DNA from: a virus
Virus record (IMG/VR): IMGVR_UViG_3300045391_006216
Location: 36,097 to 100,096 of that record
DNA length: 64,000 nt
Strand: one strand, 5' to 3'
The position numbers and the translations under genes are program-made. Of the stretch, positions 487-53,484 are shown piece after piece. Numbering within the stretch: position 1 is the first letter of the stretch; every line of letters begins with the position of its first letter. Under the pieces are notes generated by a model that saw only the letters and a program-made list of their open reading frames with translations, did not search any database and was not told the origin of the DNA.

Positions 487-1158
487 ATGAACAAATATAA
501 AGTCGATTTACCTTACCCAATTCCTCAAAGGATATTGTCTTTACCAGTACAAAACGGTTACCCTGTGCCTTGGTTTGTTGCTCAAGTTGACGGAAAATAT
601 GATTTCCGAATCACGGACGGATCGAAACTAAAAAAAGCTGTAAATTTAAAACGGTGCTGGATTTGCGGAGAAAGGTTAGGGAGTCATTTAGCATTTCCTA
701 TTGGGCCGATGTGTGCAATAAACAAGACAATTTCTGAGCCTCCCTCACATACCGAATGTGCTGAATGGTCAATTAAAACTTGTCCTTTTTTAGCGCAAAA
801 ACAAGAGATTCGCAGAGAGACCAATTTACCCGAAGGAATCAAAGAACCAGGTGGGATTGCAATTGCACGACAACCAGGTGTAACTTGCCTTTGGGTAACC
901 AACTTCTATAAAGTCGTTCAAGTCGCAAATGGAGTAATTTTTAAAATTGGAGATCCCCTAAAAATTAGTTGGTTTAGAGAAGGCAGGGAAGCGACAAGAA
1001 AAGAAGTCATGGAATCGATTGATAGTGGATATCCGATACTTCTTAATATGGCTATCAAAGAAGGGGATTTTGCAGTTAAAAATCTTGAGGCTATGCGACT
1101 TGAAGCTTTGAAGCTACTACCTGCTGACAGTGAGCAAATAGCAGTTTCGCAAAGCTAG
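487..1158 (+). CDS. conserved phage-type hypothetical protein with Cys/His motifs
   Basis: 223-aa ORF; PVPWFVA, CWICG, HxEC and CPFL motifs suggest Zn binding. Confidence 0.6.
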   Translation: MNKYKVDLPYPIPQRILSLPVQNGYPVPWFVAQVDGKYDFRITDGSKLKKAVNLKRCWICGERLGSHLAFPIGPMCAINKTISEPPSHTECAEWSIKTCPFLAQKQEIRRETNLPEGIKEPGGIAIARQPGVTCLWVTNFYKVVQVANGVIFKIGDPLKISWFREGREATRKEVMESIDSGYPILLNMAIKEGDFAVKNLEAMRLEALKLLPADSEQIAVSQS

Positions 1159-3580
1159 GTGGTACAGAATAGCCGATAATCGACCCTGCGGTGGCAACTT
1201 CGGATGGAAACTGATACCAACTAGGAAACCCTTGCAGGATTGCTGCTGCTTCGATAGTTAGAGACTTCACCATACCATTGGGCAGCCAGATATCGGCGAA
1301 CTTAGTACGGTTAGATCCTTTATCGTCAGTGAACTGCGATCGCACTATAGTATTACAAGGTAAATGTCCTGGTTTATATTTGGGTTTTTTACTACGAATT
1401 CCAGTACGCTGGATGAGTAGTGGTTGGGGTGAATTAGAAATTAAAAATTCATCAACCACTTTTTGCTGACTGGTCAGTAGTTTGGAGTCGGGCATAGTGT
1501 AGATGAGATGAGCAATTGCTTCATACCATCCAACTTGTTTATCTGATGGTGGGGGTAGTGGGATGTGAAAACCTTTTCCTGCCGTAAGTATCAGGCGTTT
1601 ACGCGATTGGGGTAGTCCATAGTCTGCAAAGTTGATAATTTCGTAGTTGATTAAATATCCAGCAGATTTTAGGGAATCGAGAATGCTATCAAAGCTTTGA
1701 CTTTCTACATAACCAGGAACATTCTCTAAGGTAAATATATTGGGAAGTAGTTCTTTGATTGATTTAGCTACTGCTTGTGCTGCCGATATATCTTCATTAG
1801 TTTCACCTCGTTGTCCTGCTTTTGCCGTGTGGGATTGGCTAAATCTCGAACAAACTGAAGAATCGTGCAAGTAATCTGGATATAAAGGAAAGTCGATAAA
1901 ACCAGACTCAGCAACTTGTTGAACCGTTTGCTGTATAACTTTGCAGTCCGGGAAATTTTGACGATGAACTTTTGTCATCGCACTGCTGAGTTTTGGTTTA
2001 GTCGGGTCGTGTTCCACTGCAATGGCTGGACGAATACCAGCTTCTACCATACCGGCTTCAATACCACCACCACCAGCAAACAGGATGACGGCACTAGGAG
2101 CGCTCTTTGGTAATGAGTTAGGAGTAATGGGTAATGAGTTAGAGGCTTTTTGTTGCTTGGCCCTAACAATGAAATTAACAATTTCTTCTCGACTAACTTT
2201 TTGAAACTGCATTGTGCGGATTTGAGCGATCGCAGTTATAGGTATAGACCCAATACTCCTGCCCTTCCAAGCACCGTTACGTTTCTCCTTCCAGTTAAAG
2301 CCCCAACGCCAATGGCTAGGGTTATTGGAGTCGCGCTCTCCAACAACACGAGGATAAGTGACCATAGATCCGTCATGAAGTTTTTTAGACTCCACATATT
2401 GATATAGACATCCAACCGATTCGCTTTGATAATCCTCAATAGGTTTATCTATTGATTGTGTTTCTAGTTCATGCGTCTCTCCATTTTTTTGTTTTAATTG
2501 ATTAATTACGCCATTTTTTTGAGCCTGCACGCTGTACCAAAACTCAAATTGTTTATTCAAAGACAGATTCAAGGCCGAATAGCATCCCTGTTGTTGTTCC
2601 TCAATATTTCTGTTCCCATCGCTCCAAACTGCTTTACAATACCTACTAGCAAGTTTCATCGCATAATTCGCATCCAAGCTAATCACGTTCATCTGAAAAT
2701 ACGCTAAAGCTTGTTTTTTAGGAGATCCGCCCAATAGATGAACAGGGCGTTCTCCAAACCACCTTGGATTAAGAGGCGTCGATCCATATGTAGAATCAAC
2801 GCTGTAACCAAGCCAGTATTTTTCGGGTATGTCAACATCGCATTTAGGTATTATTAAAACCCTTCCTGAATATTGTGCTAGTTCTTCCGCTTGTCTTAAA
2901 ATTTCTGGCAATAATTCAGGGCTAGTTACGTCTAACGCCGTTGCAATCAAAGGTTTATTATTTTTCACCATCTCAAGATGTTGATGGTGTTTATAATTTT
3001 TATAATCATTATCGACCATCATCATGTGGCAATAGTATTTATTTTTACCACTACTGTTGATGCCTAAATTCCATCCAACCTGAAAAGCAATCGCATCGTA
3101 TTTACTTTTTCCACCACCTCCGCAGTAAAACAATAAAGGCAGTTTGATGGAATATCGCCAGTGATTAATGAGGCTTTTCCTGCCTAGTTGTACAGTTTCT
3201 AATTCAAAACCGAGTTTTTGATAAAAATTATTAGCAGATAACTTCTCAGGACATTTGAGAAAAACACTAGTTTTACCTTCTTCAATAGCTCTACAAATTA
3301 CACGATAAATCAAAAGCCGTCCCCATCCTTGGTTTTGATATTGGGATAAAACAGCCAGTTTTCGGATAGTTACTTGCTCATCTTTTCTAATGTGGTAATA
3401 ACACGCTCCTATTCCTTCAATTACCTCTATTTGAGATTCTGATAGTTCAATCGATGATGTGAATCCCCCTAACTCATTCCTAAAGCTGTTAAAAATAATT
3501 TGAGCCTTTGATATTTCAGAACTGATATTTTCGCTTAATTTTAAGACTTCTTCGGTTTTCTCTAAGAATTTATTGGGCAT
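1091..3580 (-). CDS. fusion protein: GNAT acetyltransferase + DUF6610/TGT-like barrel + DNA (cytosine-5) methyltransferase
   Basis: GNAT motif QYQNQGWGRLL...ANNFYQKLGF; middle domain VHLLGGSP/SLDAN; C5-MTase motifs LFAGGGG (I), SVC in place of PC (IV), ENV (VI), QSRKR (VIII), LQGFP and IGYSVPP (X). Confidence 0.75.
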   Translation of the reverse strand: MPNKFLEKTEEVLKLSENISSEISKAQIIFNSFRNELGGFTSSIELSESQIEVIEGIGACYYHIRKDEQVTIRKLAVLSQYQNQGWGRLLIYRVICRAIEEGKTSVFLKCPEKLSANNFYQKLGFELETVQLGRKSLINHWRYSIKLPLLFYCGGGGKSKYDAIAFQVGWNLGINSSGKNKYYCHMMMVDNDYKNYKHHQHLEMVKNNKPLIATALDVTSPELLPEILRQAEELAQYSGRVLIIPKCDVDIPEKYWLGYSVDSTYGSTPLNPRWFGERPVHLLGGSPKKQALAYFQMNVISLDANYAMKLASRYCKAVWSDGNRNIEEQQQGCYSALNLSLNKQFEFWYSVQAQKNGVINQLKQKNGETHELETQSIDKPIEDYQSESVGCLYQYVESKKLHDGSMVTYPRVVGERDSNNPSHWRWGFNWKEKRNGAWKGRSIGSIPITAIAQIRTMQFQKVSREEIVNFIVRAKQQKASNSLPITPNSLPKSAPSAVILFAGGGGIEAGMVEAGIRPAIAVEHDPTKPKLSSAMTKVHRQNFPDCKVIQQTVQQVAESGFIDFPLYPDYLHDSSVCSRFSQSHTAKAGQRGETNEDISAAQAVAKSIKELLPNIFTLENVPGYVESQSFDSILDSLKSAGYLINYEIINFADYGLPQSRKRLILTAGKGFHIPLPPPSDKQVGWYEAIAHLIYTMPDSKLLTSQQKVVDEFLISNSPQPLLIQRTGIRSKKPKYKPGHLPCNTIVRSQFTDDKGSNRTKFADIWLPNGMVKSLTIEAAAILQGFPSWYQFPSEVATAGSIIGYSVPPSFAKLLFAHCQQVVASKLQVA

Positions 3581-24785: not shown

Positions 24786-25436
24786 TTAAATTGTATTTAC
24801 GTTGCGATCGCTAAAATTGGAGATGTCGTCAAACACCCATTTCCCGACATTTTCTTCCACAGGAGAGAGCATTGATAAGGCAGAAGCGGCTCCTAGCACC
24901 TGTTCGTCTGTTACTTCTAAGTAACGCTGCAACTGCTCTAAGCTTTTGTGCCCAGAAATTTCTTGAATCACCCGCAACGGTACGCCGGCGTTGCTCATCT
25001 GGGTCAAGGCAGTGCGGCGAAAACTGTGGGTGCTGGCCCCCAAGATGCCGACTTGCTGGCAAGCCATTCTCAATATCCTAGAAGCTGAATCGTGGCTGAT
25101 ATGCCCGTCGCTGCGACCGGGGAATAAATACTCACTTCCTGCCAAAGGATGATATTTAATAAGTAATCTTCGCAAGTCTTCAATCACTGGGATGGAGCGA
25201 GTTGCCAGCTTGCCCTTGGTGTTTGCTTTTCTAATGATAAAGTGCGACCTGACTTGCCCTTTGGGGGTGTATATATCAGGGGTTAACAGAGTGCAGGCTT
25301 CGCGGATTCTGGCAGCACTAAATAAACACACGCCAAACAAAGTGCGATCTCTGTCATTTTCTAGACCTGATGCAAAAATTAGCTGTATCTCTTTTTGAGT
25401 TAGCACTTTAGCTTTGCCATGTCGATTAATTTTCAT
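24786..25436 (-). CDS. tyrosine recombinase (catalytic domain only; plasmid resolvase-type)
   Basis: ARIREA (R), TKGK (K), HSFRR (HxxR), SGH (H), RY (Y). Confidence 0.9.
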   Translation of the reverse strand: MKINRHGKAKVLTQKEIQLIFASGLENDRDRTLFGVCLFSAARIREACTLLTPDIYTPKGQVRSHFIIRKANTKGKLATRSIPVIEDLRRLLIKYHPLAGSEYLFPGRSDGHISHDSASRILRMACQQVGILGASTHSFRRTALTQMSNAGVPLRVIQEISGHKSLEQLQRYLEVTDEQVLGAASALSMLSPVEENVGKWVFDDISNFSDRNVNTI

Positions 25437-25622: not shown

Positions 25623-28600
25623 ATGCCTAATCCACATCCTAAGGTTGAGAATTTAGTCAAGCAAAAAACGGTTTGGAAGAACTTACCAACTAAGCCTTTG
25701 CGAGTTCCGGAAATTTATTGCGAAGAAATTGAAAATTATGCGCGATTGCTCGATGCTGGGATGGAGTCTAAATTTTGGGATGGGGAAGATGACGAGCCAC
25801 CATCAGCATCGCAGTTAGAATTTGTCCTTAATTCAGTTAGATCTTGGCAACTAGAGGATATCGTCAAGCTTCAGTCAGAGTTACCCGCAATTATTGATGA
25901 GAAGAAAGAGAAGACATCCGATCGCCGACTTGAAAGGGCAATCTGTTATTTGTCATCACAGTGTGATGGTGCTAATTCTTTAGATGGTCAAGGTTTTAAT
26001 AAAGCCGACTCAGGCTTTGGGCATTGGTTAGCTGGTCAAATTCGACAGCAAAGGCCACTGCTCCAAGCACACGCTCTAGCTGCATACAACATGATTAAAA
26101 AGTATAGTAAGCAGATGAGTAAAGCGGGTTTATCGTTACCTTTATGGGATGCGATCGCTCATCAATATCCTGTTAATTCAGCACCAGTAATTGTTACTCA
26201 AGAAGACAAAACCATTACCCCAGAACATAGGGTAGAAGTCAAAGGGGATATGATTGCTGTGTACGCTCCTTATGATTCATCTGGTAAGTTTCAGCGTGAT
26301 TCTAAAACTATTGAGGGGTATAAGTTTGAAGGTAGCGATAAATCCTGGCGTTTTCCTCTCTCGAAAATTCAGGAAGTTATAGAAAAGCTGACAAATGACC
26401 AATTTCACCTGACACCAGAGGTTGAGGGAGCAGTAGCACTAGCCCAAAAAGAGCGTGAGGAGGAAGAAGCAGCTAAGAATGCAGCGGCGTTGGTAGCTGC
26501 TGATGAAATTGTGAAACTGGTAAAACAGGCCAGTTTAGATGCGCCCTTGGCTAATGGCTGGTATCTACGCGATTATCAAAAGCAGGGTGTAGAGTGGCTC
26601 CTTGCACACCGTCGCGGTGGAATTTACACCGGGGGTATTCTCTCAGATCACATGGGATTAGGAAAATCGCTTACAGCGTTGGTCGCAGCAAGGGCAATGC
26701 AGCGTACACACGATTGTCCAATATTTGTGATTGCTCCTGTGTCTGTGATGGATAACTGGGTACGCGAGGCGGAAAGGGCAGAGGTGAAGATTGAGTGTTT
26801 CAGTTGGGCTAAACTTCCAAAACCACTTGAGACTAAGAAATATGTGTTGATAGCTGATGAGTGCTTTCTTTATAGCACAACAATATTGACTAATATCGGT
26901 TGGCTGCCTATTGGGTCTATAGTCGAATTGAAGCTTAATGTGTTCATTGCATCTTTAAACATTGAGCGTAATGTGATAGAGTGGAAGCCTATAAATAGAT
27001 GGATTTCACGTACTAGAAAAAATAACTTGGTAAAAGTTATTCATACTACAGGTGAGTTCATTTGCACTGCAAACCACAAAATTTGGACTGAAGAAAACGG
27101 ATATGTTAAAGCAGAAACGCTCAAATGTGGAGCGAGTTTGCGAATATTGCCAGAGTATTTTTCTGACACCAACCAAAGGCAAGAACACAGCGAGATTTTG
27201 CAGTCGTACTTGTGCAAGCAAGGCAAAATACAGCACATCGGAAGCAAGGGAAAAGCATTCACGGACAACCAGACAACCATTAGTACAGAAAGCTTGTCAG
27301 TGGTGTGGACAGATTTTTCAAATGAGACAGAACAAGAAACTCAATCAGAGGAGGCAGTTTTGCAGCAAGGCTTGTGCGAATACTCACAAAGCCAATCAAC
27401 CACAAGAGAAAGAGCGATCGCGTCAATTAGTTCGTCATGCCATCGAATCAAACAAGGGCAGGACGCGACCCGATGCAAGCAAGCGCATGAAGGAAAGAAA
27501 CCCGATGAAAAACCCTGCTACTTTGTTGAGGGTATCTCAAGCCCTCAAGGGCAGGACATTTTTAGCCAGAGGCGGCAACTCAAAAATTACAGAACCTCAG
27601 ATGAATTTAGCTACTGCATTGCTGCTGACAGATTATATGGAATATCCGATATCTACCAGTTCAGTAAAACATTTGTTTCCTTGCCTTCCGCCCTCTTACA
27701 AGGTGGATATAGCTTATCCAGAGAAGAAAATAGCTATCGAGGTAGACGGGAGGACTCACAAGCTAAAGAAACAGAAGTTTTTGGATCAAAGGAAAACAGA
27801 GGTTTTGAATGCTCTAGGGTGGTCAGTGTTGAGGTTTTGGAACGAGGAGATATTGAACGACTTGGAATTAGTTTTACTGAAAGTCAAACAGTTTATAACT
27901 TAGAGGTTGCTGATAATCATAATTATTTTGCTAGTGGTGTTTTGGTTTCAAATTGTCACTATGCCCAAAATCTCAACAGTCAGCGTACTAAGAAGATGCT
28001 GGAACTGGCGCACCACGAAAATTGTTTAACAGCATGGCTGTTGACAGGGACACCAATCAAAAACGGTAGACCAGTTAATCTTTACCCGTTGCTGCTAGCA
28101 GTAAATCACCCACTGGCAGATGATAAGTGGGAATATGAACGTCATTACTGTGACGCTTATCAAAAGTCGATAGGCAGGAAAACAGTTTGGGACAATACAG
28201 GTGCATCACATCTTGATGAGTTGTCACAAAAAACTGAAGATGTAATTCTGCGTCGGACTAAACAACAGTGCTTAAAAGAATTACCAGATAAAACAAGACT
28301 GTTTGAAAAGGTTGAACTTGAAACTAAACAGGCTGATGAGTACCAAGAAACAGTTAGATTATTCGTAGAAGATTATCGTCGGCGATCGCAGTGTAAAAAG
28401 TTTAAGTACCATTTACCTTTACTATTTAAAACTCAATCACTGAAAATTTGGTTAAGCTGGGTACTGGCTTACAATCCGGCTGACCCTGAAGCTGAGGCAT
28501 TAGCAACACTAAACATTTTGCGGAAAGTTGGGAGTGAATTTAAAGTTGAGGCAGCGATCGCAACTGCTTCTGAACTACTAGAACAAGGTGAACAAGTTGT

Positions 28601-29039
28601 AATCTTCACTGAATTTTTAGAATCAGCAAAGAGAATTGCTCAAGAACTTGATGGACTGCTATTAACTGGTGAAACTAAACCAACTGAACGGCAATTATTA
28701 ATTGACCAATTTCAATCAGGAGATAAAAAGGTCTTCGTTGGCACTATCAAAGCTGGTGGTGTGGGTCTGACACTGACGGCTGCTAGTAATGTCATTATGG
28801 TCGATCGGCCTTGGACTCCTGGCGATGCAGAACAGGCAGAGGACAGATGCCACAGGCTAGGGCAACAAAACGCCGTGTTTGCAACTTGGTTACAGTTAAG
28901 TCATGTAGACCAAGCAATTGATGACCTTTTAATTCAAAAACAACAGCGAATTGAGCTTGTATTGAAGGGTAAACGTAAGACATTAAAAGGGATTAATTCC
29001 GCTAAAGATTTGGCTAAAGAATTACTGGCTATCCTCTAA
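25623..29039 (+). CDS. SNF2/SWI2-family helicase containing an intein
   Basis: LRDYQ, DHMGLGKS, ADE|CH (DExH split by the intein), LTGTP, GGVGLTL, QAEDRCHRLGQ. Confidence 0.92.
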   Translation: MPNPHPKVENLVKQKTVWKNLPTKPLRVPEIYCEEIENYARLLDAGMESKFWDGEDDEPPSASQLEFVLNSVRSWQLEDIVKLQSELPAIIDEKKEKTSDRRLERAICYLSSQCDGANSLDGQGFNKADSGFGHWLAGQIRQQRPLLQAHALAAYNMIKKYSKQMSKAGLSLPLWDAIAHQYPVNSAPVIVTQEDKTITPEHRVEVKGDMIAVYAPYDSSGKFQRDSKTIEGYKFEGSDKSWRFPLSKIQEVIEKLTNDQFHLTPEVEGAVALAQKEREEEEAAKNAAALVAADEIVKLVKQASLDAPLANGWYLRDYQKQGVEWLLAHRRGGIYTGGILSDHMGLGKSLTALVAARAMQRTHDCPIFVIAPVSVMDNWVREAERAEVKIECFSWAKLPKPLETKKYVLIADECFLYSTTILTNIGWLPIGSIVELKLNVFIASLNIERNVIEWKPINRWISRTRKNNLVKVIHTTGEFICTANHKIWTEENGYVKAETLKCGASLRILPEYFSDTNQRQEHSEILQSYLCKQGKIQHIGSKGKAFTDNQTTISTESLSVVWTDFSNETEQETQSEEAVLQQGLCEYSQSQSTTRERAIASISSSCHRIKQGQDATRCKQAHEGKKPDEKPCYFVEGISSPQGQDIFSQRRQLKNYRTSDEFSYCIAADRLYGISDIYQFSKTFVSLPSALLQGGYSLSREENSYRGRREDSQAKETEVFGSKENRGFECSRVVSVEVLERGDIERLGISFTESQTVYNLEVADNHNYFASGVLVSNCHYAQNLNSQRTKKMLELAHHENCLTAWLLTGTPIKNGRPVNLYPLLLAVNHPLADDKWEYERHYCDAYQKSIGRKTVWDNTGASHLDELSQKTEDVILRRTKQQCLKELPDKTRLFEKVELETKQADEYQETVRLFVEDYRRRSQCKKFKYHLPLLFKTQSLKIWLSWVLAYNPADPEAEALATLNILRKVGSEFKVEAAIATASELLEQGEQVVIFTEFLESAKRIAQELDGLLLTGETKPTERQLLIDQFQSGDKKVFVGTIKAGGVGLTLTAASNVIMVDRPWTPGDAEQAEDRCHRLGQQNAVFATWLQLSHVDQAIDDLLIQKQQRIELVLKGKRKTLKGINSAKDLAKELLAIL
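26862..27953 (+). mobile_element. intein (364 aa) inserted in the helicase Walker B motif
   Basis: N-terminal C1 (CFLYSTTILT), block B (CTANHKIW), C-terminal YNLEVADNHNYFASGVLVSN, +1 Cys; removing it restores ADECHYA. Confidence 0.92.
27052..27903 (+). CDS. Zn-finger + DUF559/Vsr-like endonuclease in the +1 frame inside the intein (likely ATG at 27103)
   Basis: Two CxxC...FCSxxC Zn ribbons; NUMOD-like basic linker; YKVDIA..KIAIEVDG..H...DQRKTEVLNALGWSVLRFWN. Confidence 0.85.
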   Translation: MSSFALQTTKFGLKKTDMLKQKRSNVERVCEYCQSIFLTPTKGKNTARFCSRTCASKAKYSTSEAREKHSRTTRQPLVQKACQWCGQIFQMRQNKKLNQRRQFCSKACANTHKANQPQEKERSRQLVRHAIESNKGRTRPDASKRMKERNPMKNPATLLRVSQALKGRTFLARGGNSKITEPQMNLATALLLTDYMEYPISTSSVKHLFPCLPPSYKVDIAYPEKKIAIEVDGRTHKLKKQKFLDQRKTEVLNALGWSVLRFWNEEILNDLELVLLKVKQFIT

Positions 29040-29261: not shown

Positions 29262-29981
29262 GTGTTAAAAATTGCAGTGTTCAATTTCAAAGGCGGTACG
29301 GCCAAAAGCACCACTACCATAAATTTAGGAGCTGCTTTAGCTATTCCTAAGCGTCGAGTGCTGCTGATAGACCTGGATGGGCAAAGAACTACATCATTTG
29401 GTCTGGGCATGGACGGCGGCAATCCAACAACTTTAGACTGGCTAGCTGAGGGGAAGTTTGTTGCCCCCCTAGCAACTCAAGTAAAAAATCTTTGGCTTAT
29501 TCCTGGGGACATTGGAATGTTCCGCTTAACAGCCAAGAACGATTTATTTACACCAGCTTTATCTAAATTGTCTGGATTTGATATCTGTTTGATGGATTGT
29601 CCACCTAGTTTGGGGGTGGCATCTGTGCAGGCCATTCTCGCAAGCCAACGCATTCTCATCCCCACCTTATGCGAGCCAGCTGCCCTTAAAGGGTTATCAG
29701 AAGCAGTTGAGTTGATTCGAGGTGAGAGAACGGACATCCCCATCGATGTGCTGAGGGTGCGTTATAGACCCCGATTGCTCCTTACCAAAGAAGCTGACGA
29801 TTTGTTAATTGAGGCGGCATCTGATTTAAACTATCGTCTTTTGCATACGACTATTCCAGAGAATGTCGCTGTTGCTGAATCCATAGCACAGCAAAAATCA
29901 GTTCTCGAATATGCTCCTAAATCTAGCGGTGCTAAAGCTTATCAATCATCGGCGAAAGAATGCTCGAAATTGTGGAATTAG
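29262..29981 (+). CDS. parA: ParA/Soj partition ATPase
   Basis: Deviant Walker A KGGTAKST, LIDLDGQ, MDCPP. Confidence 0.9.
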   Translation: MLKIAVFNFKGGTAKSTTTINLGAALAIPKRRVLLIDLDGQRTTSFGLGMDGGNPTTLDWLAEGKFVAPLATQVKNLWLIPGDIGMFRLTAKNDLFTPALSKLSGFDICLMDCPPSLGVASVQAILASQRILIPTLCEPAALKGLSEAVELIRGERTDIPIDVLRVRYRPRLLLTKEADDLLIEAASDLNYRLLHTTIPENVAVAESIAQQKSVLEYAPKSSGAKAYQSSAKECSKLWN

Positions 29982-36066: not shown

Positions 36067-36387
36067 ATGCCAACAATCAAAGAATGCCGCGAGCTTTTAG
36101 ATATCCAAAGCCGCGACACAATAAATGAAGACTTAAAGGCTTTGGGATTATTTGGGAATAGCTCTTTATCTTGGAGCGAAGTCCGAAGAGTTTTGGAAAT
36201 CAGGGTTTTTCTTGGGATTAAACCAGGAATCCACAGCCGGGAGAAATTCAACCAAACTCCGAAAGAGGAACTTGAACGTTTGTTTCAAAAGCATCAAAGC
36301 AGCATTGAGCAAAAGTTAGAACAGTTGCAACATCAGTACAAAAATAGACATAGAGTCACTGTACACTTGACTTTTGATCGAGACTAA
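36067..36387 (+). CDS. HTH-like DNA-binding protein
   Basis: TIKECRELLDIQSRDTINEDLKALG. Confidence 0.5.
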   Translation: MPTIKECRELLDIQSRDTINEDLKALGLFGNSSLSWSEVRRVLEIRVFLGIKPGIHSREKFNQTPKEELERLFQKHQSSIEQKLEQLQHQYKNRHRVTVHLTFDRD

Positions 36388-40213: not shown

Positions 40214-40435
40214 ATGAGTGGCTCTGAAATTTGCAAGGTTTTGCAGTCTGTGTTTGGATTTATTGTTGCATCCGCGATCGCACAACTTATTGCAGTACTG
40301 CCTCATTCACAATATCCAATTGCAATTGCGACGATAATTTGTTACCTAAAAGGGCATCAAGGTAGTTCACTTACATTGCAAGTCGTGGCGGTTGGGTTAG
40401 TTTTTGGATGGGGAAAATGTTATTTCGTTGGTTAG
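40214..40435 (+). CDS. small multi-TM membrane protein
   Basis: Hydrophobic 73-aa ORF coupled to the FtsK-like gene. Confidence 0.5.
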   Translation: MSGSEICKVLQSVFGFIVASAIAQLIAVLPHSQYPIAIATIICYLKGHQGSSLTLQVVAVGLVFGWGKCYFVG

Positions 40436-41997
40436 GGGTTGTAGGTCAAGGTGCGCTCGCAGTGGCATTTGTTTTATCGGCTAATAAAAATGAGCCTTGG
40501 TTCTTTTATCCAAGAAATATAACCGCAATGGCGCTTGGAGTTAATGCCATTTGTATGCTGCGGGGTATGGGCAAAGAGTACGAGGATATTGAACGCACAG
40601 AAGATACTTTACGGGTATTGAAAGACACCCAAGTAGAAGAACAATTACAATATTTGCAATCTGCTGCCGAATCAAAACTTGCCAACGAACAAGCAGATAA
40701 GTCTATCGAAAGACAGTTAGCCCTGTTGGAACAAACAGCACCAATATTTACTCAGTTGTTGCAACTAACTGGGAAAAATGGGCCAGTGGTGCAGATGGCG
40801 CTGGGCATGGTTCAAAATGGCGCGTCCTTTGGAGATGTACTGACAGCGGTTTCTGATGCTCAAATTCAAATGGAGCAAGCTAAAATCGTCACACAAGCTA
40901 GGCAGTTAGAATTGCAGCAACAGCAAATTATTGCCGCTCAATCAGTTCATCCCCAAAGTACTACGGTATCTATAGCAGCAACATCACAACCCGAACAATC
41001 AGATACAACCACTCAACTACAAAAAGCAGCGGCAGTAGTAGGACTCAAAACTGAATGCTTGAAGATTGATAAAGCACCAAGCTATCAACGATTAATTTTT
41101 AGTCTAAAAACGGTCGATTATCACCTACTACCGAAATGGAAAAAAGCTGCAAAAGTTTCACTGGGTAAAGATGAAGAATTCCCAATGTATATTTTTGGCA
41201 GCGAACAAGTAGGAGTAGAAGTGGGTTTAAATTCCAGCGAGCGCACATTCTATGATTTTCCAACTCGTGACTGGAAACAGGGTGGAAGATTGGTAGTTTT
41301 AGGGCAGTCCCTTGACGGGGAAGTGGTCATCGATTTAGGCAATGAAGATACTCCCCAGGTGTTGGTAGTGGGCACAACTGGCTCTGGTAAGTCAAACTTT
41401 TTACGCTCTGCTGCTTATTGTCTTTTGGTTCAAGGAGCAAGAGTAGACATCTGTGGCGGTAAAGTCAGCGATTATGAAGATTTTGCCGAACGTTTTCCCA
41501 CTATTACCGCCAATGATATGAGCAAGACTTTCGAGTTTGTGGGCGAATACTACATCGAGTGCGATCGCCGCAACTCAATGAGTAAGTCGGAATTAGCTGC
41601 ACAGCAACCCTGGATTCTGCTTATTGATGAGTACAAAGGTACTGTGCCTTTTGACGACAAACTTCGCAAACTTTACGACGACCAACTTTCTGAAGTCACG
41701 CGCAGAGGACGGGGATTAAAAATTCACATAGTTATTGGGTTGCAACACGGTTCCAAGCGTTCTAAAGAAGACCCTCAGGGATTGCCGCCAGACCTAAGAG
41801 CAAATTTACCAGCCCGGATAGCCTTTCGCTGTATTGAAGCGGTTGATGGACGGATGGTATTGCACAAACATGGCGAAGTTGTAACTTCGCTCCAGGGACG
41901 CGGCGATGGCATTATCCAAGCTGGAGCAATTAACACCAGATTTCAAGCTTATAGATTTGACAAAATACCACCTTTAACGGATTACCAACATGATTAA
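40408..41997 (+). CDS. FtsK/SpoIIIE-family ATPase with N-terminal TM segments
   Basis: PQVLVVGTTGSGKS, LLIDE, RRGRGLKIHIVIGLQ, RANLPARIAF, LQGRGDG. Confidence 0.85.
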   Translation: MGKMLFRWLGVVGQGALAVAFVLSANKNEPWFFYPRNITAMALGVNAICMLRGMGKEYEDIERTEDTLRVLKDTQVEEQLQYLQSAAESKLANEQADKSIERQLALLEQTAPIFTQLLQLTGKNGPVVQMALGMVQNGASFGDVLTAVSDAQIQMEQAKIVTQARQLELQQQQIIAAQSVHPQSTTVSIAATSQPEQSDTTTQLQKAAAVVGLKTECLKIDKAPSYQRLIFSLKTVDYHLLPKWKKAAKVSLGKDEEFPMYIFGSEQVGVEVGLNSSERTFYDFPTRDWKQGGRLVVLGQSLDGEVVIDLGNEDTPQVLVVGTTGSGKSNFLRSAAYCLLVQGARVDICGGKVSDYEDFAERFPTITANDMSKTFEFVGEYYIECDRRNSMSKSELAAQQPWILLIDEYKGTVPFDDKLRKLYDDQLSEVTRRGRGLKIHIVIGLQHGSKRSKEDPQGLPPDLRANLPARIAFRCIEAVDGRMVLHKHGEVVTSLQGRGDGIIQAGAINTRFQAYRFDKIPPLTDYQHD

Positions 41998-51855: not shown

Positions 51856-53484
51856 TTGGCAATGAAATCTGAAACATTCCAAATGTACGACTCTGTTAAA
51901 GTTATTGACCCTGATTCTAGATATTTTGGCATCACTGGGCAAGTAACTGATAACTTAAATTACTCAATCAGAGTAATGTTTCGTACTGGCATAGCCCCAA
52001 AAAATAATCGCGGGAGGGATTTAAGTGTTGGATTTTCTCCTTCAAAACTAGAGCTTATTAACCGCCCAACTGAAATAACTCCTGCACCTTCACTTATAGA
52101 TAAGAAAATCCATAAAGAAGGTACTTATCGGGAGTTTTGGGTTTCCGTACACGAGCGCCCAATAGAAGTTGGAATTAAGGTTTTGGCTATTTGCGACTTG
52201 AATCGAGATATTCGCTTTGAAGAGTTGCATCAAAACCTTACTCCCAGTGAAGTGTGGGATAAAACTATCCAAAAAATAGATGTATTGATTCAAGAATTGG
52301 GCTTAGATATTCCCGCACATCAAAAAAGATCCTCTAAATCAATAGGAGTTGTTACTGCTACCCAACTAGCAAAGGAGTTAATGATGGAGTCAAGCGTTAC
52401 ACTATCAGTTTTACGCCGTGAGCGTAGTGACGGGATTGTAGTTTACCAAGCATCGGTTCCTTGGCAATTTGTTGCTCAGTTCTTTGTGTATGAAGACCCA
52501 AATCTACCTGCGAACCAAAGAGCTAACCGCGTCCTCAATCCTTCCCACGCTAAGAAAATAAAAAATTATATTCTTAGCAATCCTAATTACTATTTTCCTC
52601 CGATGATTGCATCCATAGAAATAGATGAATCTGCCACCTTTACACCTTTGAAAAAGGACGCGTCCAATGGCATTTTAGAAGTGCCATTGACTGTAGTATT
52701 TCGCATGATTGACGGGCAGCATCGCACTTGGGCGATTCGTCAAATCATGCAAAGCAATGATGCAAGTAAGTACAGATCCGAATTTATTTCAGTGGATTTG
52801 ATTGTGAATGCTTCTTTAGAGTTGCGGAAAAAGATATTTAGGGAGGTGAATCTAGAGGCTAAAACAGTCAGTAAGAATTTAGGTACTTACTATAACGACT
52901 CCCCAATTTCACAGTTTACAAATAGCGTACTCTCAAGCATTCCTTTATTTGTAGAGTTTGCAGAAACAGAGAAAAATTCGCTAGGGAAAAAGTCTGATAA
53001 ACTTCTTATTTACAAGCATCTGTATGATGCCACGGTACTCGTGAAACCTGGGAGAGCAAGAGAGTCTGACTTTAAATATTGCCAAGTATTTTGGCAAACG
53101 TTAGTTGATGTTATTCCTGCTTGGACGAAAGTACTAGATGGTAAGTTGACTCCTCAAGAAGTCAGGGATACAACTGTTGCAGCTCATGGAGTGACAATTC
53201 ATGCATTAGGGGAATTAGGGAAGTATTTAGCAGCGAATCAAGAACCATATAATGTTGAAAAATTACTAAAGAAACTCAGTGATATTGATTGGTTAAAAAC
53301 TAATCCTGATTGGACTAACAGAGTAGTTGATGCTAATGGAGGAATGCTATCAAATAGACACAATGTCAAGTTGATGCTAAATTATTTCAAGATAAAAATC
53401 GGAGTTCCTTCTAAAGTCTTTAGTCAATCCGATAAAGACTTGGAGAAATTACACATCGGTTCTTCAAATTTATTTGCAAAATAG
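51856..53484 (+). CDS. DGQHR-domain (DndB-like) protein with N-terminal SH3/KOW-like domain
   Basis: RANR.LN..H...I..YI, YFPPM.AS, IDGQHR, F..VN. Confidence 0.8.
   Translation: MAMKSETFQMYDSVKVIDPDSRYFGITGQVTDNLNYSIRVMFRTGIAPKNNRGRDLSVGFSPSKLELINRPTEITPAPSLIDKKIHKEGTYREFWVSVHERPIEVGIKVLAICDLNRDIRFEELHQNLTPSEVWDKTIQKIDVLIQELGLDIPAHQKRSSKSIGVVTATQLAKELMMESSVTLSVLRRERSDGIVVYQASVPWQFVAQFFVYEDPNLPANQRANRVLNPSHAKKIKNYILSNPNYYFPPMIASIEIDESATFTPLKKDASNGILEVPLTVVFRMIDGQHRTWAIRQIMQSNDASKYRSEFISVDLIVNASLELRKKIFREVNLEAKTVSKNLGTYYNDSPISQFTNSVLSSIPLFVEFAETEKNSLGKKSDKLLIYKHLYDATVLVKPGRARESDFKYCQVFWQTLVDVIPAWTKVLDGKLTPQEVRDTTVAAHGVTIHALGELGKYLAANQEPYNVEKLLKKLSDIDWLKTNPDWTNRVVDANGGMLSNRHNVKLMLNYFKIKIGVPSKVFSQSDKDLEKLHIGSSNLFAK

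Follow-up and report, generated by a model that had tools for sequence, protein, structure and literature searches.

Organisation of the locus

The subject of this study is an intein, together with a nuclease gene that overlaps it, in a SNF2-family helicase gene of a cyanobacterial mobile element that is catalogued as a virus. The gene lies in a 64,000-nucleotide stretch of DNA (positions 36,097 to 100,096 of IMG/VR virus record IMGVR_UViG_3300045391_006216, a record of 100 kb), which we call the window and from whose first letter positions are numbered. A single unbroken open reading frame (ORF) of 1138 residues spans the whole element, and its helicase parts match the Pfam families SNF2-rel_dom (E=9e-25) and Helicase_C (E=4.5e-17). 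A first-pass annotation made from the sequence had placed in this protein a 364-residue intein between the junctions ADE/C and SN/CHY (slashes mark splice junctions), and had proposed that the same DNA, read in the +1 frame, encodes a protein with two zinc ribbons and a DUF559/Vsr-like domain. Both elements were recovered. The ORFs and the intein hidden Markov models (HMMs) place the intein at exactly 26862–27953, and the +1 product matches Pfam PF04480 (DUF559; E=1.1e-14, 54.6 bits against a cut-off of 20.6) and zf-FCS (E=1.8e-5). HMM searches of the two frames, which that annotation had put forward as a check, find Hint in frame 0 and DUF559 in +1. The features of the locus are collected in Table 1.

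Table 1. Features of the helicase gene, its intein and the +1 nuclease ORF, followed by other genes of the window
Feature	Position	Strand	Remarks
SNF2-family helicase gene	25623–29039	+	ORF; 1138-aa precursor; coordinates include the stop codon
N-extein of the helicase	25623–26861	+	
Intein, host frame, 364 aa	26862–27953	+	TIGR01445, TIGR01443, PF14890; junctions align with 96 homologous inteins
N-terminal HINT half (intein residues 1–100)	26862–27161	+	AF2 pLDDT 91–98; Foldseek
Putative homing-endonuclease ORF, +1 frame, 266 aa and TAG	27103–27903	+	ORF list; 117 homologues
Zinc ribbon 1 of nuclease (C13, C16, C33, C37)	27139–27213	+	Cys columns at least 90% conserved in the alignment
Host-frame spacer (intein residues 101–315)	27162–27806	+	S/Q/E-rich; no recognisable domain; stop-free
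Zinc ribbon 2 of nuclease (C65, C68, C87, C91; zf-FCS-like)	27295–27375	+	Invariant Cys columns; Pfam zf-FCS
RGGN motif, linker before nuclease domain	27568–27579	+	R173, G174, G175 (283-aa numbering) invariant
DUF559/Vsr-like nuclease domain	27694–27897	+	Conserved D202, E213, D215, H219 (266-aa numbering)
Doubly functional stretch	27793–27852	+	+1 frame, LNALGWSVLRFWNEE (nuclease core); host frame, HINT beta-strand RVVSVEVLERG
C-terminal HINT half (intein residues 316–364)	27807–27953	+	Strand ECSRVVSVEVL, then blocks F/G VYNLEVADNHNYFASGVLVSN; motif conserved in nearly all loci
C-extein of the helicase	27954–29036	+	
Tyrosine integrase	24786–25436	−	
ParA	29262–29981		
GNAT-DUF6610-C5 cytosine methylase fusion	1091–3580	−	
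DndB-like protein	51856–53484		
FtsK/SpoIIIE-like ATPase	40408–41997		

The intein in the host frame

The insertion site is helicase motif II, at DE/CH, with the junctions ADE/CFLY and LVSN/CHY. The splicing residues comprise Cys1, the block B sequence T69-A-N-H72 (27066–27077), Asn364 (27951–27953) and the Cys at position +1 (27954–27956); an equivalent set of residues is found in all 96 related loci. TIGR01445, which describes the intein N-terminus, scores 24.5 bits, at its cut-off; TIGR01443, for the C-terminus, scores 23.9 bits against a cut-off of 15.6; and PF14890 run on the intein alone gives 33.2 bits, slightly below its cut-off of 35.8.

The host-frame intein was modelled by AlphaFold2 (AF2) with 74 homologues, and the confident parts of the model are residues 1–100 and 316–364 only. 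In the latter segment, the block-mean predicted local distance difference test score (pLDDT) is 72–98, mostly above 80, with strands at residues 316–326, 343–349, 354–357 and 360–363. Foldseek matches these ordered ends to the structures of RecA, DnaX and DnaE mini-inteins, including the Spirulina DnaX mini-intein, with a probability of 1.00. The intervening residues 101–315 have block-mean pLDDT values of about 38–75, mostly below 60, and no Pfam or NCBIfam match above threshold. The first-pass annotation had described a central host-frame stretch of some 270 residues devoid of domains; the lack of a confident fold or domain is borne out, and the stretch itself is shorter, at about 215 residues. 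The last 20 or so codons of the N-terminal HINT half (27103–27161) double, in the +1 frame, as the nuclease N-terminus and its first zinc knuckle.

The +1 frame encodes a DUF559/Vsr-like protein

The +1 frame is open from position 27034, with a GTG at 27052, an ATG at 27103 and a TAG at 27901–27903. The alternative GTG start would add 17 residues that are disordered and non-conserved. The protein has 117 database homologues, down to E=1e-12, the majority of which begin at the Met equivalent to ATG 27103. Its two zinc ribbons are of the CxxC...FCSxxC type (Cys numbers in Table 1 refer to the 266-aa form), and the RGGN motif of the linker is the best-conserved block after the catalytic core. Within the nuclease domain, D219, E230, D232 and H236 of the 283-aa numbering, equivalent to D202, E213, D215 and H219 in the shorter form, are invariant in 30 sequences.

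An AF2 model of the +1 protein, calculated from the 30-sequence alignment, has a mean pLDDT of 88.9; residues 1–18 of the 283-aa form, upstream of ATG 27103, score below 50. The top Foldseek matches of the nuclease domain are the homing endonuclease I-Bth0305I (3R3P), a DUF559 protein (3HRL) and Vsr (1VSR), and the nuclease profile run against the PDB finds 3HRL with E=3e-12 and 3R3P with E=0.009. All of the residues that are invariant in the family, namely the eight zinc-binding Cys, RGGN and the D/E/D/H set, are intact in the window copy. By family membership and predicted fold, we regard the +1 protein as an intact predicted endonuclease of the DUF559/Vsr-like type.

Selection acts on both frames

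In the two exteins, the +1 frame contains 27 stops in 412 codons and 25 in 360, compared with none in the 265 codons across 27103–27900. When the synonymous codons of the nuclease were shuffled, with its protein sequence and codon usage kept fixed, a mean of 16.6 stops appeared in the host frame, which stayed open in 0 of 200,000 trials. On these two results the idea of a frame open by chance was dropped. The manner in which stops are avoided is visible at the third base of the nuclease codons. T is never found there preceding codons that begin with AA, AG or GA (0/87), as against 62 of 178 elsewhere, and in these other contexts it is the commonest third base. This avoidance has been imprinted by selection against stop codons (TAA, TAG and TGA) in the host frame.

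The closest relative of the window locus is carried by an IMG/VR contig of 20,469 bp (L082), with which it shares an intein free of indels. Host codon position 3 is the most variable in the exteins (0.46 and 0.45) and in the N-splicing region (0.25). Within 27103–27900, it is host position 1, the equivalent of nuclease position 3, that varies most (0.36 versus 0.08 and 0.12). Amino acid identity to L082 across the overlap is 83% in the +1 frame and 62% in the host frame. Comparison of homologues frame by frame, proposed in the first-pass annotation, showed the +1 frame to be open and conserved: among the 89 distinct members of the family, mean pairwise identity is 0.35 in +1 versus 0.20 in the host frame, and the mean BLOSUM score is 1.57 versus 0.30.

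A double-coding test was made by resampling synonymous nuclease codons within each family member, which yields the host-frame similarity expected to arise passively. At 27793–27852, host-frame similarity exceeds this expectation with z=12.6 and 20.3, compared with 5 or less in the central blocks. Both AF2 models, of the nuclease and of the intein, are confident at this stretch. The first 20 or so and the last 30 or so nuclease codons overlap real HINT strands, those at the N-terminus following block B. We conclude that both frames are maintained by selection, and that the overlap consists of a central stop-free host-frame spacer of about 640 nt, flanked by two short stretches functional in both frames. 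The expectation that frame 0 would show stop avoidance and nothing more thus holds in the centre and fails at 27793–27852, and some 60–100 nt code for a nuclease core motif and an intein beta-strand simultaneously.

The host-frame centre (residues 101–315) might instead be a functional folded domain, in which case the whole overlap would be doubly functional. AF2 draws two long helices in this region (99–121 and 143–176; pLDDT about 50–75), and host-frame similarity in the overlap centre lies slightly above the resampling expectation (0.26 versus 0.16). Shared ancestry would be enough, however, to account for so small an excess. Moreover, substitutions pile up at host codon position 1, and the low pLDDT, the S/Q/E-rich composition and the lack of domain matches described above argue in the same direction. 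No conserved folded centre, which the first-pass annotation had named as an outcome contrary to its proposal, is seen in frame 0 by AF2. We judge a folded central domain to be very improbable.

The arrangement is conserved across a family of inteins

Searches at the DNA level, blind to reading frame, returned 160 loci. About 100 full-length relatives of the nuclease, down to 26% identity, sit within a larger ORF, and the nuclease is in the +1 frame of that ORF in all of them. Both intein junctions are present in 96 loci, running from Cys1 to HN or SN followed by Cys or Ser (Thr at +1 in one), with a median intein length of 364 residues and the nuclease in +1. One locus (L159) was considered as an overprint without an intein; this was rejected when checking by hand revealed an intein with the same layout as in the other loci and a nuclease merely without its usual stop. 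The host genes encode several different P-loop NTPases, namely SNF2 helicases, helicases of the ResIII/DEAH type, clamp loaders resembling DnaX, some very large helicases, of which one cluster also has a DNA-methylase domain, and a single large terminase. The insertion immediately follows the DE of Walker-B/motif II in 82 of the 96 loci, and in the remainder it is one to three residues downstream.

None of the related loci carries an in-frame fusion of the nuclease, and a search for such fusions among longer proteins (467–2000 aa) gave no match at E<=1e-15, which is weak evidence. The nuclease profile, run against 401 cyanobacterial genomes with six candidates per genome scored, found one full-length match (L170), of the same architecture; a collection of plasmids yielded one distant match, from Deinococcus. 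A relative is also present in 40 cultured-phage records (Vibrio lentus phages, Corynebacterium, Pseudomonas), in which the host gene alone is annotated. The layout of the window is found in gp10 of CP-T1, a cultured Vibrio cholerae phage with a finished genome (L176; NC_019457.1, 6842–9823). The protein, annotated as a 'putative helicase', contains a 353-aa intein with the junctions DE/C and HN/CHH, and the DUF559 ORF of 250 residues in its +1 frame is unannotated.

Some loci depart from this layout. The nuclease is free-standing and adjoins an intein-less helicase gene in L011 (2821–3462) and L014 (2866–3522). In L022 (1759–3393), the two intein halves are no longer joined by an open host frame, the cause being either a split intein (a 'fractured gene') or an assembly error at very low coverage. 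L135 is frameshifted. The SNF2 host ORF of L092 (876–4841, + strand) has, besides its +1-DUF559 intein, a second insertion upstream with in-frame matches to LAGLIDADG_3 and Hom_end (residues ~396–479); this is probably a second, canonical intein, and two endonuclease architectures would thus occur in one gene.

The window comes from a metagenome assembly, and it could be argued that the nuclease is really in frame and has been displaced by two compensating indel errors. The same offset recurs, however, at each of 96 independent loci, as well as in the finished genome of a phage; frame 0 is open where 16.6 stops are expected; and there are no indels relative to L082. An exact match to the window, free of indels, extends over both intein junctions and the start and stop of the nuclease in contigs of three separate soil-metagenome studies, and it excludes an assembly frameshift. 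Neither joints nor variants were seen in the low-depth DNA contigs on the window. The likelihood of a sequencing or assembly artefact is in our estimation negligible.

Probable route of expression of the nuclease

Internal initiation and +1 frameshifting had both been offered in the first-pass annotation as routes to the nuclease, and the sequence comparisons favour the former for three reasons. In 77 of 89 loci, the 25 codons that precede the first CxxC include an ATG, placed directly behind block B. A Shine–Dalgarno core precedes such ATGs in 32 of 85 cases, compared with 12.8% of control windows in the same inteins, an approximately three-fold enrichment (p=6e-9). Finally, most of the database homologues start at that Met.

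Programmed +1 ribosomal frameshifting would generate a fusion of the N-extein, the N-terminal intein half and the nuclease. It would be accommodated by the 23 codons over which the +1 frame is open upstream of the ATG (27034–27102), and might be favoured by the window's want of a strong Shine–Dalgarno sequence and an internal promoter and by the 12 of 89 loci that have no ATG within 25 codons of the first CxxC. The conserved position of the ATG in most loci, the Shine–Dalgarno enrichment and the start of the majority of homologous proteins at that Met nevertheless speak against it. In addition, the +1 residues upstream of the ATG are disordered and non-conserved, such conservation as remains being explained by block B of the host frame, and the fusion would add more than 490 residues to the nuclease. 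We consider frameshifting decidedly unlikely.

Of all promoter-like matches in the region, the best (10 of 12) is on the − strand at 27951–27922, antisense within the C-terminal splicing block. It is probably a chance occurrence, because the region is poorer in promoter-like sites than shuffled sequence, with five sigma-70-like sites found against 8.7 expected.

Distribution and mobility

Intein-free alleles, which the first-pass annotation had suggested seeking, are plentiful. The intein is absent from 82 of 86 orthologous helicases, mostly from Nostocales and several of them on plasmids; orthologues on Nostoc plasmids are 70–90% identical to the window protein. The intein-free alleles read LICDEAHYAQN at the insertion site, where the window reads LIADE/intein/CHYAQN. 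Four orthologues have an intein. Besides the window, P0130 and P0191 have a 364-aa intein at the same DE/CH site, and the N-extein identity of P0191 is just 41%.

Two side observations concern these orthologues. P0138 (1210 aa, 58% identity) has in-frame matches to LAGLIDADG_3 and intein-splicing Pfam families; its motif II is unbroken (LIADEAHY), and its intein must therefore be at another site. The alleles with and without the intein differ in two residues around the insertion point (window 26850–26861), Ala to Cys after the splice site and Cys to Ala upstream of it, a difference that could reflect co-conversion or target-site immunity.

Across the family, nuclease identity is correlated with that of the N-splicing domain, the DNA for which lies outside the overlap (Mantel r=0.61, p=0.001), and the next-nearest intein-plus-nuclease relatives of the window reside in helicases with a flank identity of 12–16%. 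The identity values alone are taken from this comparison; its host-class labels come from coarse regular expressions and are in error for some loci, such as L089. On these grounds, the intein and its nuclease appear to travel as one unit, occasionally between different genes with a DExH motif.

Proposed mode of action

Overall, we think it very likely that the element combines a mobile intein with a homing endonuclease that has a gene of its own, overprinted on the intein coding DNA in the +1 frame. The first-pass annotation had proposed a dual-coding selfish element with a host frame kept open for splicing, and every check that could be run (HMMs, homologues, folds, empty alleles) supports this view. 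Ribosomes in the helicase frame would make the 1138-aa precursor, in which the HINT halves (residues 1–100 and 316–364) would fold around a flexible spacer of about 215 residues and splice, releasing a 774-aa helicase with DECH as its motif II. A second product of the same mRNA, initiated internally at ATG 27103, would be a 266-aa protein composed of two Cys4 zinc ribbons, a helical RGGN linker and a nuclease of the Vsr/DUF559 type. This enzyme would cut or nick intein-free alleles at the motif-II (DEAH) coding site, and recombinational repair would then copy intein and nuclease together into the cut allele. Across the nuclease gene, the host frame is held stop-free via selection on the synonymous sites of the nuclease, as a stop would destroy the helicase.

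Several observations weigh against this interpretation. The penultimate intein residue is Ser where His is canonical; Ser is probably tolerated, because about half of the family has it at this position. ATG 27103 of the window has a weak Shine–Dalgarno-like context (GGA), and a crude scan of the + strand inside the gene found no sigma-70-like promoter upstream of the nuclease start; given these two features, translation of the nuclease from the helicase mRNA is probably weak. Nuclease identity correlates equally well with extein identity (r=0.63), from which it appears that much of the inheritance of intein and nuclease is vertical, and shared ancestry inflates the Mantel correlations. Lastly, intein and helicase have diverged from L082 at similar rates, with no sign of recent horizontal homing of the window copy.

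It could accordingly be supposed that the +1 ORF of the window is an inactive or domesticated relic in a vertically inherited intein, with no homing or some other role. The similar divergence of extein, intein and nuclease from L082 is what vertical descent predicts, and just 4 of 86 orthologues carry an intein. Set against this are an ORF complete with start and stop, in which all invariant family residues are intact, and substitutions relative to L082 that fall mainly at nuclease third positions, indicating ongoing purifying selection; examples that have decayed, such as the frameshifted L135, look unlike the window copy. A relic therefore seems to us unlikely, and we retain the interpretation of a mobile intein with an overprinted endonuclease gene.

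Relationship to known systems

Inteins with a separately framed endonuclease have been described before, so that the element is less novel than the first-pass annotation suggested. Gosselin, Arsenault and Gogarten (bioRxiv 10.1101/2025.01.02.630785) reported actinobacteriophage inteins of a non-canonical type, in which the endonuclease has its own ORF and is either endonuclease VII-like in frame 3, or LAGLIDADG or Vsr-like on the antisense strand. As in the present family, splicing domain and endonuclease are in different frames, the host frame yields no recognisable fold where it runs across the endonuclease, and the inteins are located at nucleotide-binding motifs, are apparently mobile and have ORFs missed by annotation. 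The family described here differs in its two-zinc-ribbon DUF559/Vsr-like nuclease, encoded on the same strand in +1, and in its hosts, which are SNF2, DEAH and DnaX-like genes of cyanobacterial, Vibrio and metagenomic elements, rather than the terminase, polymerase, capsid and ThyX genes of actinophages. We found no paper in the literature on a same-strand +1 DUF559 nuclease in inteins; PMC9403480, which mentions both intein and DUF559, proved to be unrelated. The general idea is thus known, and the nuclease type, the frame and the host gene are new here.

Cyanobacterial dnaX inteins provide a second parallel. The preprint of Gosselin and co-workers cites Gorbalenya (1998) for a separately framed endonuclease in the Synechocystis dnaX intein, and a preprint of September 2026 (bioRxiv 10.64898/2026.09.14.751524) reports an out-of-frame endonuclease in cyanobacterial dnaX inteins and, by term counts, makes no mention of SNF2, DUF559 or Vsr. 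We find dnaX split at the same DE/CH site in 9 of 151 sampled cyanobacterial genomes. Hidden in the −1/+2 frame of two full-length inteins of ~426 residues (L174, 248–1282, − strand; L175, 208–1212, − strand) is a LAGLIDADG_2 ORF of 335–345 residues (E about 1e-19), which has a CxCGCG motif in its N-terminal part and shows no similarity to the window nuclease. Insertion at DE/CH of a P-loop NTPase, similar splicing blocks and a same-strand overlapping endonuclease ORF are common to these inteins and ours, but LAGLIDADG_2 in −1/+2 there is replaced by DUF559 in +1 here. Identity of the two elements was rejected on account of the unrelated nuclease and the different frame. Among the other dnaX inteins, L171 retains a 132-aa N-terminal remnant of the hidden ORF, and L172 and L173 are mini-inteins at the same site.

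A frame-shifted endonuclease also occurs outside inteins. In the ShiLan-type insertion of a phage DNA methylase (Arsenault et al. 2025, PMC11855218), which is in frame with the phage gene and free of stops, a homing endonuclease of the HNH type is hidden out of frame, an arrangement like that found here. The ShiLan type has HNH and no intein splicing domains, whereas the present element combines DUF559 with a complete HINT domain. For the nuclease itself, the nearest characterised structure is I-Bth0305I, the group I intron-encoded member of the EDxHD family of Vsr-like homing endonucleases (Taylor et al. 2011, PMC3239194). The catalytic domain matches it (3R3P) with a Foldseek probability of 1.00 and a template modelling (TM) score of 0.64–0.67 on the target, and both enzymes are Vsr-like and belong to mobile intervening sequences. 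The sequence match is marginal (E=0.009), the core here reads IEVDGxxH (E-x-D-G-x-x-H) and not EDxHD, and generic DUF559 is nearer to the nuclease than 3R3P is; a double zinc ribbon at the N-terminus is a feature of the present family alone.

In the 'fractured genes' of Dassa et al. (2009, PMC2677866), the two halves of a split intein are separated by a free-standing gene for a Vsr-like or GIY-YIG endonuclease. They share with the window element a Vsr-related endonuclease gene between the intein halves of DNA-metabolism genes, theirs being mostly phage genes, and the 3' end of their endonuclease gene shortly overlaps the C-terminal intein coding region. In fractured genes, the host is in two ORFs and trans-splicing occurs; in the window, the host frame continues uninterrupted across the whole endonuclease gene and the intein is in one piece. 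Tentatively, and as a possibility that we hold to be rather less than an even prospect, the present inteins may form a large, old and mostly unannotated family in which an obligate, stable +1 overprint is locked by about 150 nt of doubly functional ends, and which hops between P-loop NTPase genes via the coding motif of Walker-B (DExH). They might then be the 'unfractured' counterpart of fractured genes, a living intermediate, with the free-standing nucleases of L011 and L014 and the possibly split L022 as neighbouring states. If this were true, the family would illustrate the passage of free-standing endonucleases into inteins, or their part in generating split ones.

How homing endonucleases entered inteins is an old question, and the family presents both parts as separate genes on one stretch of DNA; it is likewise a clean natural case for the study of overlapping-gene evolution. 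A motif common to many ATPases could explain the jumps of the element between genes. Standard annotation misses nucleases of this kind, and inteins recorded in databases as 'endonuclease-less' or 'degenerate' merit re-reading in all frames. The cultured phages that carry the element offer a tractable system for internal initiation, splicing across an unstructured insert of about 215 residues and target recognition.

Genomic neighbourhood

Ten ORFs of the window were scanned for the nature of the surrounding DNA. The genes recognised, which include those listed at the foot of Table 1, contain no structural phage genes among these ten, and, taken together with the helicase orthologues on Nostoc plasmids, the neighbourhood looks more like that of an integrative element (resembling an integrative and conjugative element) or a plasmid-like element than that of a lytic phage.

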